IMG/VR virus record: IMGVR_UViG_3300002062_000002
Direction: 5' to 3' (one strand)
Source: a virus
Length of the DNA stretch: 64,000 nucleotides
Positions 3,092 through 55,025 of this stretch are shown piece after piece (position 1 is the first letter of the stretch; every line of letters starts with the position of its first letter). A model generated the notes under the pieces. The model searched no databases and was not told the DNA's origin. It worked only from the letters and a program-made list of their open reading frames with translations. Both the position numbers and the translations under genes were made by a program.

Positions 3092-5272
3092 TTACGTTGG
3101 AGGCTTGTACGGAGAATACTCTAAACTTATACCACCACAGCGTAGTATGTGTTTAACTATCTGGGTCGACATACTACCGCCACGAGGGACGGTAGTTCTA
3201 TCCACTGCCGTATCAATATTGGTAGGTTCATCCGCCTCCAGGATACTACGGTTAATGGCATGCGATGACGTAAGTGAATTTGTGCGATCGAGTAACTCGG
3301 CAACCGCGTTGGGGTCCATTACGGCGGCCATTAAACCCACCTCAGACTCACCCGCAAAACGTATAGGTGACTCGCGATACGGGTTTAAGTATTTATCTCC
3401 CCGCCCCAACTGCACGACAATACCTTGATGTTGCCGTTTAGTAATGCTTGTAGTTGACCAGTCCTCCCCCGTCTTATCTAAAAGCATCATGTACTTAGTA
3501 TCAATGGTAATGTTACGCTTAGTGGTTTTTATCTTACCGTCAATGCCCACGTATTGTACCTTACCCGCTTTTCTAGGCATGACTTTTTGTATGTCATTCA
3601 CCTGCCGACAGCCTATATTTGGGGTATTGGGTGGCAATAGTAAATAAATGCCCTCCGACTTCACCTTCTCTAAATGATTAAATTTAAGTTCGGTAGTAGT
3701 AAGATTCTTATTGCAGCGAACCCACATATACGCACTCGCATGTCGATAGTATTCCATTAAGAACGCAAATTGCTCCTCATTAGAAATTCCCACTGTATCC
3801 ATGCGCCTTAACTCATTTACCATAAAGGTCTTAGACTGATTGTTCCATTGCTCAAATAACTGACCGCAATTTGAGCGTTTAATGGCAGACAAAGGATCTT
3901 TTACCACATCTGCCACAATGACCTCTTCTCCCTCTAAAGGTATGGTTCTAGGCATATGTGAATCGGGTAAGATATCTACGATTACCCCCTTGGTGCCATG
4001 GGTATCCGTAATTTTATATCCCGGCACAGGAACTTTGGTGTGGGCATACGTGATAGAGATGTTAAAGTCGTCTAGCGGAACCTTATTCTTTATCCGTAGT
4101 ACTCTATCTTTACTACTGTCTTTAAAGTTACTGTACGCTTCCACTACTAAGGAATGAAACTCCCCCGATAGGTTCAGCCCCGCACTTGTTTTTTTCTTGT
4201 ACTTCTTATACACCGTCAATATCTTGTTGTAGAATACATCTTTGGCCCTAACGTATCCCATTAATGATTCGGTCATGCCCGTAGGGGTTGTGTGAAATTT
4301 AAGGTTGTGGTCATGTAATACATCAACGTCTACCACCACTGCCCCTGGTTGACCAAAGAACGTTTTATCAAAATCATAATCCACCATATCGGCAAGTAAA
4401 TTTGAAGGGTGCATTTCCGTAATGGTAAAGTTACTATCAAACGGACGAAACGCCATAATTAAACCATCGTCCCGTATGGTATCTCCCGGGCCAGGGAAGG
4501 GCTTGTATATATCTTTGGTGCCGTATATGTTTAATGGGAACAGTCGCTTACCACAATTGGCTGTGCGGATACCTAATTGCTTTGTGGCTATCTTTTTTGC
4601 ATAACTTTCACTGATCCTAAAACCGTCCTCGATGGTATTGGGAATCGTCATAAACGCCACATTAGTTTCTATACCGTAGTTAAAGTTGCCATACTCATCT
4701 ACCGACGGCGAATCTTGGATAATGGCCTTTTCACGAAATCTCGTCTGTGGTTTTAACTGTGACATTACCTTTACATTTGGTTTAAATTCCCACCCCAAGC
4801 TGGTGTGTTGGAAGAAATAATCTTCTAGTAGCAATGACTTTATTTCAGGGTCATTAACTACTTGGTAAATAACCAAGGTGGCGGGGTTTTTCTTGATACC
4901 TCCCATACCGTATTGTTTGACATACTTTGGAATAACCGCTAGTATTTCAGATAATGGAGGTAAGCTTTTGGAAAATGTATATTTAGCATACTCACGCTCA
5001 ACCCCAGTTAAGTTGCGACGTATGGTAGATTCTAATATGCATAAACGCTGCTTCATGTGTGACGCATGCATTTGTTGACGAGAAGCTGAATTGTTGGCAA
5101 TAAATGGATTTAGATTGGTGGGTGCACCCACTAGTTCAATGTCTAATTCATTTATTATAGTGGGGTTGTTGTCTTTGTCTAGTAATACCATTGTATCGGT
5201 TTCACTGTCCCAGTAGAACGGCTGTCCCTCAAAGGTGTTTACTTCTACAAATCGTTTATCAATAGTTGACAT
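3092..5272 (-). CDS. Non-virion RNA polymerase beta C-terminal subunit (phiKZ gp71-73-like), uninterrupted
   Basis: LNPFIANNSASRQQM, NTIEDGFRISES, GYKITDTHGTKGVI, PIRFAGESE: beta-subunit motifs. Confidence 0.93.
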   Translation of the reverse strand: MSTIDKRFVEVNTFEGQPFYWDSETDTMVLLDKDNNPTIINELDIELVGAPTNLNPFIANNSASRQQMHASHMKQRLCILESTIRRNLTGVEREYAKYTFSKSLPPLSEILAVIPKYVKQYGMGGIKKNPATLVIYQVVNDPEIKSLLLEDYFFQHTSLGWEFKPNVKVMSQLKPQTRFREKAIIQDSPSVDEYGNFNYGIETNVAFMTIPNTIEDGFRISESYAKKIATKQLGIRTANCGKRLFPLNIYGTKDIYKPFPGPGDTIRDDGLIMAFRPFDSNFTITEMHPSNLLADMVDYDFDKTFFGQPGAVVVDVDVLHDHNLKFHTTPTGMTESLMGYVRAKDVFYNKILTVYKKYKKKTSAGLNLSGEFHSLVVEAYSNFKDSSKDRVLRIKNKVPLDDFNISITYAHTKVPVPGYKITDTHGTKGVIVDILPDSHMPRTIPLEGEEVIVADVVKDPLSAIKRSNCGQLFEQWNNQSKTFMVNELRRMDTVGISNEEQFAFLMEYYRHASAYMWVRCNKNLTTTELKFNHLEKVKSEGIYLLLPPNTPNIGCRQVNDIQKVMPRKAGKVQYVGIDGKIKTTKRNITIDTKYMMLLDKTGEDWSTTSITKRQHQGIVVQLGRGDKYLNPYRESPIRFAGESEVGLMAAVMDPNAVAELLDRTNSLTSSHAINRSILEADEPTNIDTAVDRTTVPRGGSMSTQIVKHILRCGGISLEYSPYKPPT

Positions 5273-11638: not shown

Positions 11639-12865
11639 TTATATTACCTCGTTTAATAATCCCTCCAGACGATTAAGTTTTTCTGTATCCAGTTCACCGT
11701 TATGTTTGTCGGCTAAAAACTTTAACGTCAATCGTTTAATGGTTTCTTTGTTGATATTTGCAGGGGTGAAATTTTGAGTAAGTTTAAAGGGGGATGCAAG
11801 CTGTCCATCCTCTACCGTCTCCCTGCTCATTGTCCACCTGAATTCCGGATACATCGTTTCTATATCCCGTTTAGCTGACGCTATTTCGGACCCCGCGGAT
11901 GCAATAATACGAAAATGACTACCGTTGGGTTTCTTTACCACGGAGGCTTGTATTACTTCTAGCGATTCCGCTACAGATAACCCCAAGCAATTAATGGTAA
12001 TGAATTTAGTGGCTAGTTTATTTGTAATAAATCGAATAGAGTCACTTCCATTATCCGCCAACGAAATATCAAGTCGATAATGTCCCTTTGCCGCTTCCTC
12101 GCCGTGGCAAAAGCGATCAAACGAACCTTGTGCTAAAATGTTTCGCCATTGACGTTGAACATGAACATGACCAATGGTAATATAGTGCTTTACAATATCA
12201 CTATATTTAAACTCGTCATGGTGGGAAAGTTTAATATTGTTTGGTAATTGAAAACCAAACATACCGTGCATAACACCCATATCAACTTGCTTAAGGTCAT
12301 GTTGGGATAATAGACACTGCACCTGCTTCCAAGTTTCATTTGGATCATGCTCCCATTCATCGGGAACGTAAAGTACATCCATATTTAAAGCGTCTATGTG
12401 CTCGATGTACAACTTATCAATCCACCGCACATTACATGAAGATTTTAACATCTTAGCAATGTTAATAAATAGTGCATTCTGACGCCAGTCGTGGGATGGG
12501 GTACCTTCCAATATACGTAGTATAATATCACGTTTTTCACATAACTTAATTAAATCAGATATAAATAATTGAATGCACCCAACCCCCTCGTGGGAGAGGT
12601 GTATATTTCTGTCAAAGAAGTCACCGGCAATAAAGATAATGTCCAGTTCCCCAGTGGTATCGTTATCGGGAAACGCGGCATATAGCCCCCGGACAATATC
12701 TTCGGAGGGCACTTTATGATGACCTAAATGTACATCGGATATAGTGGCAATGCTAACATGCTTACTATGCTTCTTCGAAATCATCATCATCGAATGTCTC
12801 AGTTGGTTGCATTCCAGGTGGCGGGGTGAGTGGTGTGGATTTGTTGAAAAGTGTAGGTTCCCCAA
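11639..12865 (-). CDS. sbcD: SbcD/Mre11-like metallophosphoesterase nuclease
   Basis: SDVHLG, AGDFFD, EGTPSHD, MHG, GHVH motifs; true start probably near 12790. Confidence 0.88.
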   Translation of the reverse strand: MGNLHFSTNPHHSPRHLECNQLRHSMMMISKKHSKHVSIATISDVHLGHHKVPSEDIVRGLYAAFPDNDTTGELDIIFIAGDFFDRNIHLSHEGVGCIQLFISDLIKLCEKRDIILRILEGTPSHDWRQNALFINIAKMLKSSCNVRWIDKLYIEHIDALNMDVLYVPDEWEHDPNETWKQVQCLLSQHDLKQVDMGVMHGMFGFQLPNNIKLSHHDEFKYSDIVKHYITIGHVHVQRQWRNILAQGSFDRFCHGEEAAKGHYRLDISLADNGSDSIRFITNKLATKFITINCLGLSVAESLEVIQASVVKKPNGSHFRIIASAGSEIASAKRDIETMYPEFRWTMSRETVEDGQLASPFKLTQNFTPANINKETIKRLTLKFLADKHNGELDTEKLNRLEGLLNEVI

Positions 12866-16445: not shown

Positions 16446-16495
16446 TCCTTTTAGTTTTAGTGTTTGATATGACACTTAGATAATATATGTGTCAA
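16446..16495 (-). repeat. 50-bp perfect direct repeat, copy 2
   Basis: Identical to 9971-10020; overlaps the last chimallin codons. Confidence 0.97.
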
Positions 16496-22997: not shown

Positions 22998-23370
22998 GTA
23001 AGTATTCCAAACGATCTACGTTTTGCAATACCGATTGTTTAAACGCCACCTTTACTAATCGGGTAACTACGCTAGCTATAAGGTTACTTAATTGCCCATA
23101 CTCTTCGTCTTCCTCTACGTTCATATACTCAACGGCCTCCATGGCCAGTAGGTCTATTTCAGATTCGTCTATTCTAGAATTAGTTAACTGCAATAGGATA
23201 GTGGATACCACTGCCATTAACTCGTCGGTTAAGTAACTTGCCCCTGAGATAGACTGGGTGTAATTTGAAATGTCTAAGCACGTATGTTGTATATCTCGCT
23301 TTATCTTGCTGCCATCAACTATGTATATTTCTTCTATTTGCATGTGATTATTCCTGTTAATTTTGTTCAT
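22948..23370 (-). CDS. Acidic hypothetical protein (small-gene array)
   Basis: Likely start MQIEE at 23343 with SD AGGA. Confidence 0.62.
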   Translation of the reverse strand: MNKINRNNHMQIEEIYIVDGSKIKRDIQHTCLDISNYTQSISGASYLTDELMAVVSTILLQLTNSRIDESEIDLLAMEAVEYMNVEEDEEYGQLSNLIASVVTRLVKVAFKQSVLQNVDRLEYLHERDGGLVFKVGSSHD

Positions 23371-23371
23371 T

Positions 23372-23402
23372 CGGCATACTAGAGTTAGGGGGATACCCTA
23401 AC
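23372..23402 (-). terminator. Hairpin + TATGCCG element
   Basis: GTTAGGG-N5-CCCTAAC then TCTAGTATGCCG on minus, at the stop of 23398..23886. Confidence 0.6.
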
Positions 23403-23886
23403 CCATTGCACGATTTAAGATGTCTGGGACGTGTGCCTGATTACCTAAATCCGCTTTAGGCATTAGTCGATAATCTCCCATGTCTACTACCAATAACTCA
23501 TACTGTATATTGCCATCGTGTAGGCGATCAATAAATCTAGCACTATAATGATGGTTATCCCGCAGTGGTCCAAAGGCTTGTTGTAGCGCACTAACTAACT
23601 CTGTGCGCATCGTGTTTTTTGCCAGGGTGAGGACGTCAGTCGGAAACCCCACGTCACCCATTTGATAGATATGTTCATCTTCAAGTGTGACTGTAGATGC
23701 ATATGAGAGTATATTATCTAACTCCACCAATATCCAATCTCGCCAATCATATAGATCTAAAAACATACTGTTTCGAATGGAGTGGATACATAAAACCGTT
23801 TTTGTTTTTCTAATGGCCCCACCCACATCAATTAGCGCTTTTATCTTCATGACTTTACCTACATATCCAATGTGCAAGCACGACAT
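23398..23886 (-). CDS. Hypothetical protein with MGDY motif (small-gene array)
   Basis: C-terminal ELLVVDMGDYRL, echoed in the next gene. Confidence 0.65.
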   Translation of the reverse strand: MSCLHIGYVGKVMKIKALIDVGGAIRKTKTVLCIHSIRNSMFLDLYDWRDWILVELDNILSYASTVTLEDEHIYQMGDVGFPTDVLTLAKNTMRTELVSALQQAFGPLRDNHHYSARFIDRLHDGNIQYELLVVDMGDYRLMPKADLGNQAHVPDILNRAMG

Positions 23887-24355
23887 CCTCAGTCGGAAGT
23901 GCCTCGATTGATTTTAAATATTCATATAGCATTTCAGTGTAATCCCCCATCTTACGAATAATTAAAGCGTCGTATCTAACCGATACTTCCCATATGCCAA
24001 AGGGGTGGCGTTTAAAGACGGTCACCATAAGCATCTCAAACCAATCAGTTAACCAACTTGTGTGCCCCACCCACTCAATATCGGGGCGTAGACTTGCTAA
24101 ATACTCAATGCCTGCTACGCTAATTGGCCCGTTTAATTTAGAATTCATTGCAATGGCATCAGAACACGATAAATCAATAAACACTGTAATCTCGGCATCG
24201 GTTAATTCCACATACCCTTCTGCGTGTAGCATTAATCTAGTTTCACGAAGAAGGCTTTCTATGGGTAATATGATATTTCCATTTTGCTGGAATTCTGCCG
24301 CATCTCTAGCTTCTTTGTAGGCTGGATATTTTGGTGGTCTAATGTAGTCCGTCAT
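23855..24355 (-). CDS. Hypothetical protein with MGDY motif (small-gene array)
   Basis: C-terminal ALIIRKMGDYTE. Confidence 0.65.
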   Translation of the reverse strand: MTDYIRPPKYPAYKEARDAAEFQQNGNIILPIESLLRETRLMLHAEGYVELTDAEITVFIDLSCSDAIAMNSKLNGPISVAGIEYLASLRPDIEWVGHTSWLTDWFEMLMVTVFKRHPFGIWEVSVRYDALIIRKMGDYTEMLYEYLKSIEALPTEDVVLAHWICR

Positions 24356-24366
24356 GTGGATCGTCC

Positions 24367-24792
24367 TTACGATATAAGTATTAGTGTATTATCATTAAAC
24401 TTTATTTTAAATGCAGCATTCACATTTAATGTATTGTTAACCAGTGCCATTGCCTTAAAGCATAGCCTATCCAGCGTAAACTCTACCATGGGAGGTGGGC
24501 TATATACATACCGAAATAAATCGGATGGTAACGTGGCCAATGCACGATCGTTATCTGAGTAGAAATCCGCTACCTCCAATCGATTTAAAGAAACATCATT
24601 CATCCGGTCCACTATGAATATAGACGTAAGTAAATCTCTATGTGTCTGACACTCGGGATATTCTAAAAGAACATCATCAATGTATTGTTTTGATGCCCTA
24701 AGTTCTCTAGATATATCCATTATTATTTTTACACCTAACGATTTATCCATAGGCTTTCCCGTGGACGACCGGGTGAATTGATTACTATACAT
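24367..24792 (-). CDS. Hypothetical protein, first gene of the small-gene array
   Basis: SD AGGGG before ATG; promoter motifs at 24825-24851 and ~24950-24980. Confidence 0.62.
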   Translation of the reverse strand: MYSNQFTRSSTGKPMDKSLGVKIIMDISRELRASKQYIDDVLLEYPECQTHRDLLTSIFIVDRMNDVSLNRLEVADFYSDNDRALATLPSDLFRYVYSPPPMVEFTLDRLCFKAMALVNNTLNVNAAFKIKFNDNTLILIS

Positions 24793-24983
24793 GTGTACCC
24801 CTGTTAATGTTCAATGGCAGCTCCCTATATAATAGTAGAGTTGCGTAAAAAGTCCCCTATGCAATTTTAAGTGAGTAGATGATAGATTACATACCTTACC
24901 ATCAAACGTCCTCATATGGCCAATGTAGAGGGTTTTATACTAGGTGGTGTACAAATATAATATATGTCTGTATTTTTTTAATG

Positions 24984-25009
24984 CGGCATAGGCCGGGGGC
25001 GAACCCCCG
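24984..25009 (-). terminator. Hairpin + TATGCCG element closing the phuZ/ncRNA unit
   Basis: Minus strand CGGGGG-TTCG-CCCCCG then GCCTATGCCG. Confidence 0.65.
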
Positions 25010-25029
25010 TAAGTATTAAACTAACCTAC

Positions 25030-25320
25030 CGCAGTGTTTCATAGGAATCTGCTTTCCTTCTTTGTTTCAAGTAATACTTACACGATACCTATTTGGGACA
25101 CGCCCCAGGCTGGGCATTATATTCACTTGAAAGTAGGCCATCTGGCCTTTGCATTCCATTGCAATGGAATTTAGGTGACTTCCGGTTCCCTTAGATGTAT
25201 GGGCGGGAAAACGCCAAATATATAATGGGCTCTTAGTTGAACCCCCGACTGCATACATCACTACGATCGCGTAAAATTGAAGGAGGAATTCGCGGGGGAA
25301 CCGGAAGTCGTAACGCTTTT
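25030..25320 (-). ncRNA. Candidate structured ncRNA (~300 nt), family not recognised
   Basis: Nested stems of 14, 8 and 12 bp plus several hairpins; upstream promoter-like motif and downstream terminator; no credible ORF. Confidence 0.6.
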
Positions 25321-25379
25321 AAAGGATCGTTAACAAAATACCTTTTCTACATACTATATATAAAAACGTGTAAAAAAAG

Positions 25380-26375
25380 TTAGAGCACTAAACCGCCAAC
25401 GGCTGTGGATTTTCTATCGTCATCGGTAAGTACATGAGACGTATTGACGCGACGAGACTCCGTTGACTTCTTATACGCGGCCACTTCATCCTCTCGCAGT
25501 TTCATTAACTCTCGAATACCGTCTACCGAGATAATGTAATGAAGCTCTTCCGCCAGTTCACCAAAACCTTCTGCTCTGTATCCAATACAAGAATACTCGG
25601 GTAGGATGGCGGGTGGCGTTGCATCCTTATCCACTAAGATACTTGCAACCGAAATGGGGTGCTTAATGTCCATCGCCGCTTCTGTATTGTTACACACTTC
25701 CAACAATGACAATTGTGCATCTACCGTAGTGGAGTGATTATAAAATACCCAATTTGCCACATCGCGCTGATCAAGTTCATCATTTGACTCTGAGCACAAT
25801 GCAGCAAGTGTATGAATTGTAGCGTTACATACTTTGTCTACGGTGCTGCGCACGGTATTTTTTGAGTTGTGGTGATAGTTAATTACTACGGGTTTACCGC
25901 ACCCTTCACCAATAGATGCCAATGAACGCAATGTGTTAATGGTATTAATCGCTGTGATATTAGATTCAGACGACCCCACAATAACGGCGACGCATGGAAT
26001 GTCTTGCGCTAAAAGTTCACCCATAAGCAACGGTCCAATTACAGACCCTGATCCGCCGGCCGCAGAAAAGACCACTACATTAAAATCGGCGGGTTTTTCA
26101 GACATTAAAATATCACGTAGGTTCTCAGATATTTCACTCGCATTATCGCGACGCACCTTACCCGACCCTTCTTTCTTTGTCGTGGCTAGATTAAGTGCTA
26201 CGCCGGTGGATTCTTGTACGGTCCCGTAGTTAGACTTAGACGTGTCTATAAAGCTAACGTTGGCCTGGGCATAGCCTGGAGATAGTTCTGTTTCTGCAAA
26301 CGGCGTGGCTAAATTGATACCGCAGCCACCGCAGCCATATATGCGAATTTCAGATCGTGTGTGTTCGTTAGTCAT
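25380..26375 (-). CDS. phuZ: PhuZ phage tubulin
   Basis: YGCGGCGIN, FIDTS, GSGKVR, SAAGGSGS tubulin signature, DQRD T7 loop. Confidence 0.96.
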   Translation of the reverse strand: MTNEHTRSEIRIYGCGGCGINLATPFAETELSPGYAQANVSFIDTSKSNYGTVQESTGVALNLATTKKEGSGKVRRDNASEISENLRDILMSEKPADFNVVVFSAAGGSGSVIGPLLMGELLAQDIPCVAVIVGSSESNITAINTINTLRSLASIGEGCGKPVVINYHHNSKNTVRSTVDKVCNATIHTLAALCSESNDELDQRDVANWVFYNHSTTVDAQLSLLEVCNNTEAAMDIKHPISVASILVDKDATPPAILPEYSCIGYRAEGFGELAEELHYIISVDGIRELMKLREDEVAAYKKSTESRRVNTSHVLTDDDRKSTAVGGLVL

Positions 26376-26399
26376 TGGTACTTTCCTTCTTTTAATGGA

Positions 26400-27080
26400 T
26401 TATTCGGGTTGGGTTTTTTGGTAATGTGCGTAGTCTACTTTTACGTAGCTACCGTCTTTGTAAAGTGGGTATCTAAAGTGTTTACTTATAATTAAATCAT
26501 CCCTGCCTGTTTCCTTAATGGCCGTAGCAATCTTTTCATTCCACCATTCACCGGGACGAATGCAGGCGTGTGCGTTTCTACCGTCTGGTAATAATGTAAA
26601 TGCTGGGCCAAGGTGAATGGTTACATGCAGTACACTACCGGACAGGTAAATAAGTTCCTTTAGGAACCACGGTATATCGGTAGGTGGTATATGCTCAAGT
26701 ACATCGGTACACACCACAATATCACTTTGTTTATACGGGTACATACTCAGTTTTTCAATGCCAGGATCATACATGGATACGTCTAACCGACCTAAGTATC
26801 CATGTATGGACCTAAAGGGCTTATCCTCATCGGTATGTGTAGGGGGAGTATATGGGGTGTTAAAAAAGGCTTTGGGATTACCACAACCATAGTTTAATAG
26901 TGTTTCACATTGATGGTCATGTATAAGCCTTTTAATGGTTGGTGCTTCTTTGGCATATTCCCCATTTGAAAATACTGGCCCCTTAACCTTATCTTTTTTT
27001 CTTGTATCATGTAGTATCTTGTATTGGGTTAGTAATGAGGTGTATTCTTTACTAGGATTGCTTCTAGAATATAGTGTCAT
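26400..27080 (-). CDS. Class I SAM-dependent methyltransferase-like protein
   Basis: LLNYGCG (motif I, Asp replaced by Asn), YDPG, DIVVCTDVLEHIP, DGRNAH...WW. Confidence 0.8.
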   Translation of the reverse strand: MTLYSRSNPSKEYTSLLTQYKILHDTRKKDKVKGPVFSNGEYAKEAPTIKRLIHDHQCETLLNYGCGNPKAFFNTPYTPPTHTDEDKPFRSIHGYLGRLDVSMYDPGIEKLSMYPYKQSDIVVCTDVLEHIPPTDIPWFLKELIYLSGSVLHVTIHLGPAFTLLPDGRNAHACIRPGEWWNEKIATAIKETGRDDLIISKHFRYPLYKDGSYVKVDYAHYQKTQPE

Positions 27081-27212
27081 GCTATTACCTGTTAATTATT
27101 AGGTATGTGGGGTATCAATTCTATATTAATAACTGGTGATGTAAAAAAACTTTGAGTGGTCAATCTAGAGCGTATCGCCATTTACTATGACTGACACTAA
27201 ATAGCCGTTATA

Positions 27213-28034
27213 TTGGAGTACGCCATGAGCGCAGTAGAAAAAGCCATTGATGAAATTCGGTTAGCCATACCGTATGAAATATTGAATGAAGCATTTAAGA
27301 TAGATATGGGGTATGTATCGGGTAGAACTTCAGGCATTCAAACATCCCTTTCCTCCCGCATACGAGAAGACGTTATTAATAAGAAGGTATTAGTAGATTG
27401 TAATTTAATGGGCGGTAAAGAGGTAGTTGTGCCCTTAGATTCTCTTCCTAAGAAGACCTTAGAAGATAATACCTACGTCATTAAGATACCCTTAAAATTA
27501 ACAGGAGGTTTAGCTATCACCTCCACGTTGAGTGTTGCACATATAACATCGGGGCTACGGGGGCTATCTGGGGTAAATAACACCACAACGCCAGTGGACG
27601 GAGCATTTAGTAATCTAGCTAATGCTGACAGACCTTCACAGTTGACTATACCAAATTCTAAAGTAAGTTTAATAGGTGACAATACCGTGTATATACGCTT
27701 ACCGGATATTGCCGTAGGTGATCTATTTCTTCGCTGTAGGGTTAGTAACGATCCGGATATGGCCACACTACCCCCTACCAGTTGGTTGGGATTTTCCAAA
27801 CTATCAATTCTTGCAACTAAAGCTTACATTTATAATAAGTTGATTATACGTATTGATGAGGGACAGCTACAAGGCGGGTTAAACTTGGGGGCATTTAAGC
27901 AGATGGTGGATAACTATTCAGATGCATTAACGTTGTATAACGAGTACCTATCCGGGGAATGGGTGCGTGTCATGGCGCTAGGCGATGAGGTGCGTCATTC
28001 TCGCGCCATTAACTTCCAATTTGGCATGATTTAA
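27213..28034 (+). CDS. Conserved virion structural protein (probably phiKZ gp32-like)
   Basis: AIDEIRLAIPYEIL..AF, DCNLMGG, ATKAYIYN, YNEYL..EW; likely start 27225. Confidence 0.68.
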   Translation: MEYAMSAVEKAIDEIRLAIPYEILNEAFKIDMGYVSGRTSGIQTSLSSRIREDVINKKVLVDCNLMGGKEVVVPLDSLPKKTLEDNTYVIKIPLKLTGGLAITSTLSVAHITSGLRGLSGVNNTTTPVDGAFSNLANADRPSQLTIPNSKVSLIGDNTVYIRLPDIAVGDLFLRCRVSNDPDMATLPPTSWLGFSKLSILATKAYIYNKLIIRIDEGQLQGGLNLGAFKQMVDNYSDALTLYNEYLSGEWVRVMALGDEVRHSRAINFQFGMI

Positions 28035-28040
28035 GCACAT

Positions 28041-28077
28041 CGGCATAAGGGGGAAATGCGGACAATCCACATTTCCC
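28041..28077. terminator. Hairpin + TTATGCCG between convergent genes
   Basis: GGGAAATG..GGA-CAA-TCC..CATTTCCC stem; CGGCATAA at 28041-28048. Confidence 0.65.
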
Positions 28078-54656: not shown

Positions 54657-55025
54657 CTATCGGGGGGAAACTCCCGATTTATGCCGACGAGACAAAAAAA
54701 AACTACGTTCAACGGTCATTGCCCACTTATCTTTACCTAACTTACAACTCAAGTTAAACGACTCTAATTCTTTATCACGGCCAAATGAGTCAACGGCGTA
54801 ATCGTGAGTTGCATGAATAAGCGCTTGGTGAGCTTGATTGGCTACCGCCTGAGACTTGGTGAACGTGGCGTAATCAATGTCGTGTGGTTTACCTAATTCA
54901 GTGATGACATCTTGCATGACTTTAGCATCAATTTCATCATTGGTTTTTACACCCGTAGTTTTAAGGTGCTTTGCAATTGACTTTGATGCTTCTAGTACTT
55001 CTTTTGATATTTTTGATTCTGACAT
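54657..55025 (-). CDS. Hypothetical protein, 3' end uncertain
   Basis: SD AAGGA; frame runs through a T9 tract and the convergent terminator. Confidence 0.58.
   Translation of the reverse strand: MSESKISKEVLEASKSIAKHLKTTGVKTNDEIDAKVMQDVITELGKPHDIDYATFTKSQAVANQAHQALIHATHDYAVDSFGRDKELESFNLSCKLGKDKWAMTVERSFFLSRRHKSGVSPR
54659..54686 (+). terminator. Hairpin + TTATGCCG element after tail tube
   Basis: ATCGGGGG-GAAA-CTCCCGAT then TTATGCCG. Confidence 0.68.

Follow-up and report, generated by a model that had tools for sequence, protein, structure and literature searches.

What is encoded in the gene-free DNA that follows the phage tubulin gene phuZ? The question is raised by a 64,000-nucleotide (nt) stretch of viral DNA, IMG/VR virus record IMGVR_UViG_3300002062_000002, referred to here at its full length as the window. 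In this stretch, phuZ (25380..26375) and the next gene downstream (24367..24792), both on the minus strand, are separated by 587 bases without a gene. An earlier model-made reading of this DNA, termed the sequence-only reading, proposed an undescribed structured phage RNA immediately downstream of phuZ. The placement stands, the identity of the upstream gene being confirmed by Pfam (Tubulin and TubZ_C_2) and by PHROG 4733, 'tubulin PhuZ' (E 1.2e-85). The central claim is upheld by covariation in relatives, the lack of a conserved open reading frame (ORF), the lack of an Rfam match and a discrete RNA in metatranscriptomes. The 587-base region is a locus of an uncultured nucleus-forming giant phage that encodes a folded non-coding RNA of ~360 bases. 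It is highly probable that the locus is that of a real, conserved, structured non-coding RNA; the whole reading favored here, in which a discrete structured RNA is made in the phuZ direction and acts in trans, is held with moderate confidence.

The structure is most clearly seen in marine relatives of the window phage. A search of 5.8 billion proteins gave 15 PhuZ relatives of 54-65% identity; nine of these supplied locus DNA, and further loci were drawn from JGI and IMG/VR. All 11 phages whose PhuZ is 54-65% identical have a gene-free interval of 340-790 nt after phuZ, with gene order otherwise conserved, and nine distinct marine relatives (PhuZ 58-65% identical) carry ~500 nt of alignable RNA sequence at the same place. 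Folded alone, each relative adopts the same 5ʹ architecture, which consists of hairpin P1, an invariant CGUUGCUGU and an uninterrupted long-range stem of 11-14 base pairs (bp) around P3 and three hairpins. A hairpin occupies the P1 position in all relatives, with compensatory changes at five of its six stem positions. In all ten sequences (window included), the long-range stem begins no more than 2 nt after the anchor and covers 125-147 nt, and at least six different sequences form it. Shuffled tails give long-range stems with a mean of 7-9.6 bp, and none of 300 shuffles reaches the 14 bp found in the window. The first hairpin inside this stem, H3, has a loop of 15-19 nt in which UUCAAUUU is invariant in 10 of 10 sequences, and seven of its eight stem positions show compensatory change.

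Alignment of the relatives extends this picture. RNAalifold applied to six well-registered sequences yields 50 pairs, 20 of them compensatory. Made into a covariance model, the same six recover, at full length, three relatives that had been left out of it (E 2e-23, 8e-18 and 9e-12). In a 5ʹ-domain alignment of nine sequences, which are related to one another and were fitted to the model, 94.6% of cells are in standard pairs, compared with 77.6% after shuffling and 35-44% when the partners are slid. On the same alignment, pairs changed on both sides number 36 of 50 (18.5 shuffled, 5-10 slid), the covariation score is 0.584 (0.26 shuffled, ~0.1 slid), and 0 of 500 shuffles match the observed value on any of these three measures. 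In helix 4, the long-range stem, both sides have changed in 9 of 12 pairs. Comparison of phuZ-downstream regions, which the sequence-only reading had named as a check, thus reveals a structured RNA that is kept through many compensatory pair changes. Approximately 46 of the 425 paired cells in the relatives (~11%) are G-U wobbles, which pair only on the phuZ-sense strand; the structure therefore fits that strand alone, and the RNA is a minus-strand one, as had been claimed. The 3ʹ domain of the relatives is a series of conserved local hairpins and single-stranded motifs, including ACAAUCUGG, a CCC-UUAANU-GGG hairpin, UGCUUCGAAC, a purine-rich CAAAAAGAAAAAG and CAUAAGAAC, and one long-range helix of this domain (AGYGRY/GUCRCU) co-varies.

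The RNA of one relative, locus L017 (identical in sequence to L009), is present whole or in part in 13 RNA runs. Seven of these are marine metatranscriptomes from three studies, each with more than half of the sampled words of the L017 RNA. On this locus, transcription is predicted to begin with the G at 3515, ~4008 marks the end of the 3ʹ hairpin, and a second TATG has its G at 4015. Within the 851-nt stretch 3350-4200, run X9 contains one contig (3523-4011); run X11 has a single contig at 3525-3851 and nothing else on the 6-kilobase (kb) locus; and contigs in runs X6 and X7 end at 4017. The contigs of X9 and X11 hence begin 8-10 nt after the TATG G and carry no phuZ sequence, and those from three runs stop 2-8 nt past the 3ʹ hairpin. 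In run X5, the summed contig depth is 1.3-1.7e5 over 3553-3697, whereas the phuZ contig has a depth of 384 and the downstream one 1298; the RNA thus exceeds phuZ more than 100-fold, on a scale that is a poor measure of abundance. With starts and ends near both signals, the contigs outline an RNA of ~500 nt, of which the 5ʹ domain is an even more abundant fragment. The relatives' RNA is apparently a discrete and very abundant species in ocean RNA samples. One X5 contig carries 13 untemplated A residues after L017 position 3763, just beyond the 5ʹ domain; this end may have been left by poly(A)-assisted decay acting on the 3ʹ domain, or it may have arisen as a library artefact.

No known RNA family accounts for the element. 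ARAGORN finds neither a transfer RNA (tRNA) nor a transfer-messenger RNA (tmRNA) gene in the whole 64-kb window. Rfam membership was read from a covariance-model score at or near the gathering threshold, and in a comparison of Rfam 15 with window positions 24300-25900 (E up to 10) the best scores are 18.4 bits against a threshold of 50 and 17 bits against a threshold of 42, both at E > 1. Such scores are at chance level, and no Rfam 15 family reaches its threshold, including GOLLD, ROOL, HEARO, IMES, RNase P, tmRNA, 6S, group I and II introns and the hammerhead. The statement that no tRNA, tmRNA or RNase P signature can be recognized is borne out by these searches. Rfam likewise matches nothing in the RNA region of six relatives (E up to 1) or in the gap at five cultured-phage loci.

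The copy in the window shares its position and plan with this family. It follows the phuZ stop on the same strand and precedes an early-type promoter (stop 25380, box 25358, core 24964), the order being that of all relatives. The relatives open with a TATG-containing 5ʹ box of the form TATAGTATGT(A/U)(G/A)AC, to which the window box, TATAGTATGTAGA, conforms in its one copy in 64 kb. Next comes P1 (25321..25345), an AAAGG/CCUUU stem with an inner 3 bp that is part of the minimum-energy fold, and then a GCGUUAC anchor (25310..25316), which aligns with the invariant CGUUGCUGU of the relatives and separates P1 from the long-range stem. The 14-bp stem that closes the 5ʹ domain pairs 25296..25309 with its perfect complement at 25177..25190, and the succession of P1, CGUU anchor and long-range stem is thereby that of the family; the stem spans 133 nt and lies in the same place as the relatives' stems, to which its sequence is unrelated. 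H3 (25268..25294) has a CGCG/CGCG stem and a 19-nt loop, within the family range, with the invariant UUCAAUUU at 25274-25281. The remainder of the 5ʹ domain (25194..25259) is an 8-bp stem, 25252-25259/25194-25201, around hairpins at 25227-25244 and 25202-25215. This arrangement, seen in the minimum-energy fold, is restricted to the window lineage; relatives carry P3 with H4 and H5 there.

The 3ʹ domain of the window RNA opens with two hairpins (25135..25170), the palindrome 25153-25170 and GGCCA/UGGCC at 25135-25148; the latter, followed by UACUUUCAAG, resembles H8 followed by UGCUUCGAAC in the relatives. Further along, a stem of UUUCAAGU and ACUUGAAA (25065..25132, with paired parts 25065-25072/25125-25132) surrounds a branched hairpin and corresponds in position to the relatives' UGCUU/GGGCA helix, which likewise encloses a variable hairpin. 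A purine-rich tract, CAAAGAAGGAAAGCA (25043..25064), lies partly in a small hairpin and aligns with the conserved CAAAAAGAAAAAGCA of the relatives. The 3ʹ terminal module (24982..25033) pairs UGCGGUAGG with CCUAUGCCGCA around the hairpin 24994-25009, and the 3ʹ end of the RNA probably falls at ~24985-24992.

All of the inverted repeats listed in the sequence-only reading (the 14-bp repeat, the 8-bp stem, the 18-bp palindrome, the 25135-25148 hairpin, the 25065-25132 stem and the CGCG arms around an AATT-containing loop) are in their places, and every one is contained in the minimum-energy fold of the window RNA. Compared with dinucleotide shuffles, the minus strand of 25020-25330 folds with z = -3.70 and its plus strand with z = -3.45. 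The predicted transcript, 24985-25350 on the minus strand, has z = -3.18, a fold that none of 100 shuffles equals. The fold test that had been suggested for this region is therefore passed at z -3.2 to -3.7. The structured element proposed for 25030-25320 is present, but its boundaries are wider, probably ~25350 to ~24988.

Several features of loops and tracts are recorded as leads. The H3 loop of the window (25272-25290, minus strand) reads AAUUCCUCCUUCAAUUUUA and holds CCUCC, as does the 3ʹ end of the 16S ribosomal RNA; this is the anti-Shine-Dalgarno core, and its complement is a Shine-Dalgarno-like AAGGAGG. The mimicry is missing from relatives, which have UUUCCUU or UUUUUUU in its place. 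A search for antisense targets found no other occurrence of the complement of the H3 loop in the window or in any fetched locus. The window and loci L003, L005 and L020 hint at a pseudoknot in which the pyrimidine run of the H3 loop pairs with the purine-rich tract; in most sequences the tract is not the best partner. The purine tract also resembles an A-R-N repeat of the kind bound by Hfq, a lead that is not established. The invariant loop motifs UUCAA and UUCGA resemble T-loop modules, which are used for tertiary contacts, again as a lead only.

The locus is bordered by two types of signal. The 5ʹ box TATAGTATGTA (25348..25358, minus strand) contains TATG, with the predicted start G at 25350, and its single exact occurrence in the 64-kb window makes it locus-specific. 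TATGTA is kept just after the phuZ stop in 11 of 11 relatives and also in the Serratia phages Moabite and Totoro. In the relatives the TATG(TA) box lies ~12-60 nt after the stop, and nine of them share with the window the form TATAGTATGT. For late transcription, the phiKZ non-virion polymerase uses a TATG promoter whose G is +1 (PMC4666361, PMC12809450), and by analogy the window RNA would start at 25350. A promoter-like motif had been noted at 25355-25379; a putative start signal does lie nearby, but the chief conserved box is the TATG-type one at 25348-25358 rather than the AT-rich 25355-25379. At the other end, the predicted terminator at 24984-25009 contains the hairpin 24994-25009, which is followed by TATGCCG (24984-24990) and not by a U-tract.

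Hairpin plus TATGCCG is a general form of punctuation in the window, where 7 of the 12 TATGCCG copies are immediately preceded by a strong hairpin that lies at the end of a gene. GC-rich hairpins with TATGCCG 1-3 nt later are located at 30786-30810 and 54659-54686 on the plus strand and at 34502-34530, 28041-28075, 23372-23400, 12676-12705 and 24984-25009 on the minus strand. Klebsiella phage Eowyn and IMG/VR locus L029 also have this arrangement downstream of phuZ. In appearance, the arrangement combines two signals of the phage's own transcription, a stop and a TATG start. CUUAUGCCGUC, considered as a 3ʹ motif specific to the RNA, was rejected because it is part of this general signal. In the gap alignment, the relatives' gaps are bounded by the TATG(TA) box on one side and by hairpin, YUAUGCCG and ATATATTAT on the other, and ATATATTAT is kept at the early-promoter position. 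The window has at this position an early-type promoter core, TATATTAT (24957..24964, minus strand), which would serve the downstream genes and separate them from the RNA; the same core precedes three genes. Promoters with the ATATATTAT core would belong to the early class by analogy with phiKZ. Near-identical promoter-like cassettes (TTGACACATATATTATCTAAGTG plus leader) stand on the minus strand at 16487, 10012 and 5321 before three genes, two of which match RNA polymerase beta-subunit families and the third a PHROG of unknown function. Between the early-type core and the next ATG, the window has ~165 nt (24793-24956, minus strand) and relatives have 35-50 nt, and the window leader includes a 34-codon ORF at 24811-24915. 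The gene that it leads to encodes 141 amino acids and is without a family match.

These features suggest how the RNA might be made and used. The phage non-virion RNA polymerase would start at the G of the TATG box, a conserved element that lies 30 nt beyond the phuZ stop, and transcription would end at the hairpin that precedes the second TATG signal, the downstream genes being driven by their own early-type promoter. The product, ~360 nt in the window phage and ~500 nt in the marine relatives, has two domains. In the 5ʹ domain, P1 is joined to a multi-branched core that is closed by the 11-14-bp stem and displays the large-loop hairpin with UUCAAUUU; in the 3ʹ domain, conserved single-stranded motifs lie between successive hairpins. 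Such an RNA would build up far above the neighboring messenger RNAs, and its 5ʹ domain, presumably resistant to 3ʹ to 5ʹ decay, would survive as the most stable piece. The best guess at function is a stable, trans-acting late RNA, a particle whose exposed conserved loops may bind a partner and which may serve as a scaffold or decoy late in infection.

A number of results weigh against this reading. The window sequence itself was found in no RNA run and only in DNA runs, from one algae-metagenome sample. With filters off over 23000-28000, covariance model R1 of the relatives' 5ʹ domain finds nothing at the window locus, and model R2 of that domain recovers H3 only, at an insignificant 4.0 bits (E 0.57); nhmmer on the window RNA matches just the 13-nt 5ʹ box. 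Homology of the interior hence rests on position, motif order and topology, and the window copy is to be regarded as a divergent relative rather than a model-confirmed member. On these grounds of arrangement, the window RNA appears to be a divergent member of the marine phuZ-downstream RNA family. Part of the family structure is also less firm, as RNAalifold recovers no more of the 3ʹ domain than local hairpins and long-range pairs that are either invariant or ambiguous, and the GUCACUUAUG segment has two competing pairings. The box TATAGTATGTA, at one copy in 64 kb, is not a general phage promoter; it might alternatively belong to the RNA or mark where the RNA is processed. The RNA evidence consists of assembled contigs, which give neither strand nor true ends. 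In X4, X6, X7 and X8, moreover, phuZ and the RNA lie together on a single contig, which means that there is read-through from phuZ as well.

These joined contigs are what would be expected if the element were a cis-acting structured 3ʹ untranslated region (UTR) of phuZ that blocks 3ʹ to 5ʹ exonucleases and stabilizes or localizes the message, with the abundant species a decay remnant akin to subgenomic flaviviral RNA (sfRNA). This is the main rival, and it is thought rather unlikely. It is favored by the distance from the phuZ stop to the RNA, just 12-40 nt with no terminator between, and by run X5, in which the compact 5ʹ domain is most abundant and the loose poly-A end at 3763 looks like exonucleolytic trimming. 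However, the X9 and X11 contigs start just past the TATG box without phuZ sequence, and a box matching the phiKZ non-virion polymerase start is conserved at that point even in Moabite-like phages, whose PhuZ is 34% identical. The conserved loops and single-stranded motifs, furthermore, exceed the needs of a mere exonuclease block. A remnant can still be functional, so that this explanation overlaps with a trans-acting RNA. Less probable again is a self-assembling or catalytic large RNA, either a ribozyme or a multimer like ROOL and GOLLD, in place of a protein- or RNA-binding decoy. Although the ornate, multi-domain fold, its size, its great abundance, its carriage by phages (as for GOLLD and ROOL) and the likeness of UUCAA and UUCGA to T-loops would all suit such an RNA, no Rfam ribozyme or large-RNA model matches the window (E up to 10) or six relatives (E up to 1), and no conserved cleavage-site signature was recognized.

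The two remaining explanations, which dispense with an RNA product or make it a message, are disfavored. The sequence-only reading had offered as its alternative a DNA cruciform, an origin or a spindle-related site. G-U wobbles, RNA-only contigs in two libraries and the lack of a global GC-skew switch counter this, and a DNA-level element, whether replication origin, cruciform or site for a spindle or partition protein, is very improbable. On the other strand or on a cruciform arm, the ~46 G-U cells among 425 would be A-C mismatches, and the helices co-vary while their sequence is free to change, as in an RNA; the two RNA libraries contain contigs on the RNA alone, a pattern from which uniform DNA carry-over would differ. 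Perfect or palindromic repeats would nonetheless permit cruciform extrusion, the plus strand folds nearly as well (z -3.45), and cumulative GC skew has a small local dip at 24-26 kb. A replication origin at the locus was rejected given that the window has no global GC-skew switch. The idea that gene callers missed one or more small proteins has the lowest probability of all. It draws on an 83-codon stop-free stretch on the window sense strand and a 95-codon open stretch in the same general region of L020, but these differ in frame and position, with 5-15 stops per frame in nine relatives and 3-10 in the window copy. L005, which is near-identical to L020, has a broken frame, with a 1-nt indel inside the longest open stretch; substitutions are compensatory in stems and lack three-periodicity, and there is no conserved Shine-Dalgarno sequence with a start codon.

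How far does the proposed trans-acting RNA extend beyond the core marine clade? The closest cultured PhuZ proteins, those of Xanthomonas phages RTH11 and LucasX, are ~42% identical to that of the window. blastn of the window gap against 50,697 phage records, tblastn with the downstream protein and an IMG/VR scan with a single PhuZ protein all gave no match. No closer relative was found against which covariation inside the window's RNA copy could be judged. An nhmmer profile of the relatives finds the core clade only. An IMG/VR pattern scan for the 5ʹ box plus CGTTRC returned 60 stretches, of which four are already-known contigs and the other 56 have no R2 match; tblastn on the 60 detected PhuZ on two already-known contigs only. 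Loci whose PhuZ is 31-44% identical have gaps of just 6-190 nt in which the motifs are lacking. Models R1 and R2 miss these loci as well as phiKZ, RTH11, LucasX, Eowyn, FBKp24, RSL2 and Moabite, and they also miss L007 and L010, whose PhuZ is 54-56% identical. At L007 (3991-4260) and L010 (2571-2900), the TATGTA start box and an end formed by hairpin plus CUUAUGCCGU(C/U) are kept, and they enclose only ~230-290 nt of different structured sequence. The limits of the RNA thus persist even as the sequence between them is replaced. The phiKZ non-coding RNA '5ʹUTR_gp40', considered as a positional match, was rejected because its name refers to locus tag PHIKZ_p40 and not to the gene after PhuZ. phiKZ has no counterpart of the locus, its PhuZ-gp40 gap being only 54 nt.

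An analogous locus is present in cultured phages. In Serratia phage Moabite (NC_048792; L054 3467-3953), phuZ is followed by a 487-nt gene-free gap that begins TAGTATGTAGAAAAC, in which 14 nt, AGTATG through AAAA, agree exactly with the window box. This gap folds with z -4.6 and carries a hairpin with TATGC and then an early-like CTATATTAC. Nine records, all from Moabite-like phages of Serratia and Pectobacterium, keep the gap, and the Totoro gap (L056 301-795) is 88% identical to that of Moabite, with compensatory changes visible in the alignment. The Moabite and Totoro gap, which shares its opening TAGTATGTAGAAAA box with the window, is annotated only with a terminator and belongs to a culturable system. 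Its interior sequence is unrelated to that of the marine family and is missed by R1 and R2, and PhuZ is only 34% identical. Since the gap opens with the window box, chimallivirus lineages that are far apart each have, downstream of phuZ, an RNA locus with TATGTAGA at its opening.

It is tempting, though tentative, to suppose that Chimalliviridae keep a dedicated post-phuZ locus for a large, very abundant, structured RNA that is a working part of the infection machinery and a new functional class of viral RNA. If so, the 5ʹ box (TATGTAGA), the position and a compact fold would outlast the changes in sequence from lineage to lineage, and an RNA-protein particle might act on host translation, on RNA decay or on traffic between phage nucleus and cytoplasm. 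Nucleus-forming giant phages keep transcription apart from translation and escape most DNA-targeting defences, and their RNA biology is barely charted; for phiKZ and 201phi2-1, only short UTR-derived RNA candidates have been described so far. What is gained here is a concrete new RNA class, together with a likely start and stop grammar (TATG box; hairpin plus TATGCCG) for uncultured chimalliviruses. The culturable Serratia phages with an analogous locus offer a direct experimental route to the function of such RNAs.

Among known systems, IMES RNAs are structured, are represented in Rfam and are known for their abundance in marine metatranscriptomes. The phuZ-downstream RNA is similarly a structured RNA from uncultured marine sources that is very high in ocean RNA libraries. 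Unlike IMES, it has a known genomic home, directly after phuZ in chimallivirus-like phages, and it does not match the Rfam IMES models. phi29 pRNA and bacterial 6S RNA are stable trans-acting RNAs, each of which binds one protein machine. Like them, the phuZ-downstream RNA is discrete, abundant, stable and structured; the likeness lies only in the proposed mode of action, through shape and exposed loops rather than coding. It is two to three times larger than these RNAs and has no sequence or structure similarity to them. Candidate non-coding RNAs of phiKZ and 201phi2-1, from Grad-seq and ONT-cappable-seq, come from the same virus family and are likewise intergenic, transcribed by phage polymerase and of unknown function. 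Those candidates are mostly 71-196 nt long and arise from premature termination in 5ʹ UTRs (PMC10914365, PMC11512511). No Rfam family, published phiKZ or 201phi2-1 non-coding RNA or phage-collection record corresponds to the element. A set of more than 10,000 unnamed candidates (PMC10690425), compared by its text only, mentions neither tubulin nor jumbo phages. Closest in character are GOLLD and ROOL, which are also several hundred nt long, multi-domain, supported by covariation, often carried by phages and highly expressed, without an established function. The phuZ-downstream RNA does not match them in sequence or structure and is not located beside tRNA genes, of which the 64-kb window has none; instead, nucleus-forming phages carry it at one fixed place downstream of phuZ. 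It is a new family within a known kind, the large structured phage RNAs of unknown function.

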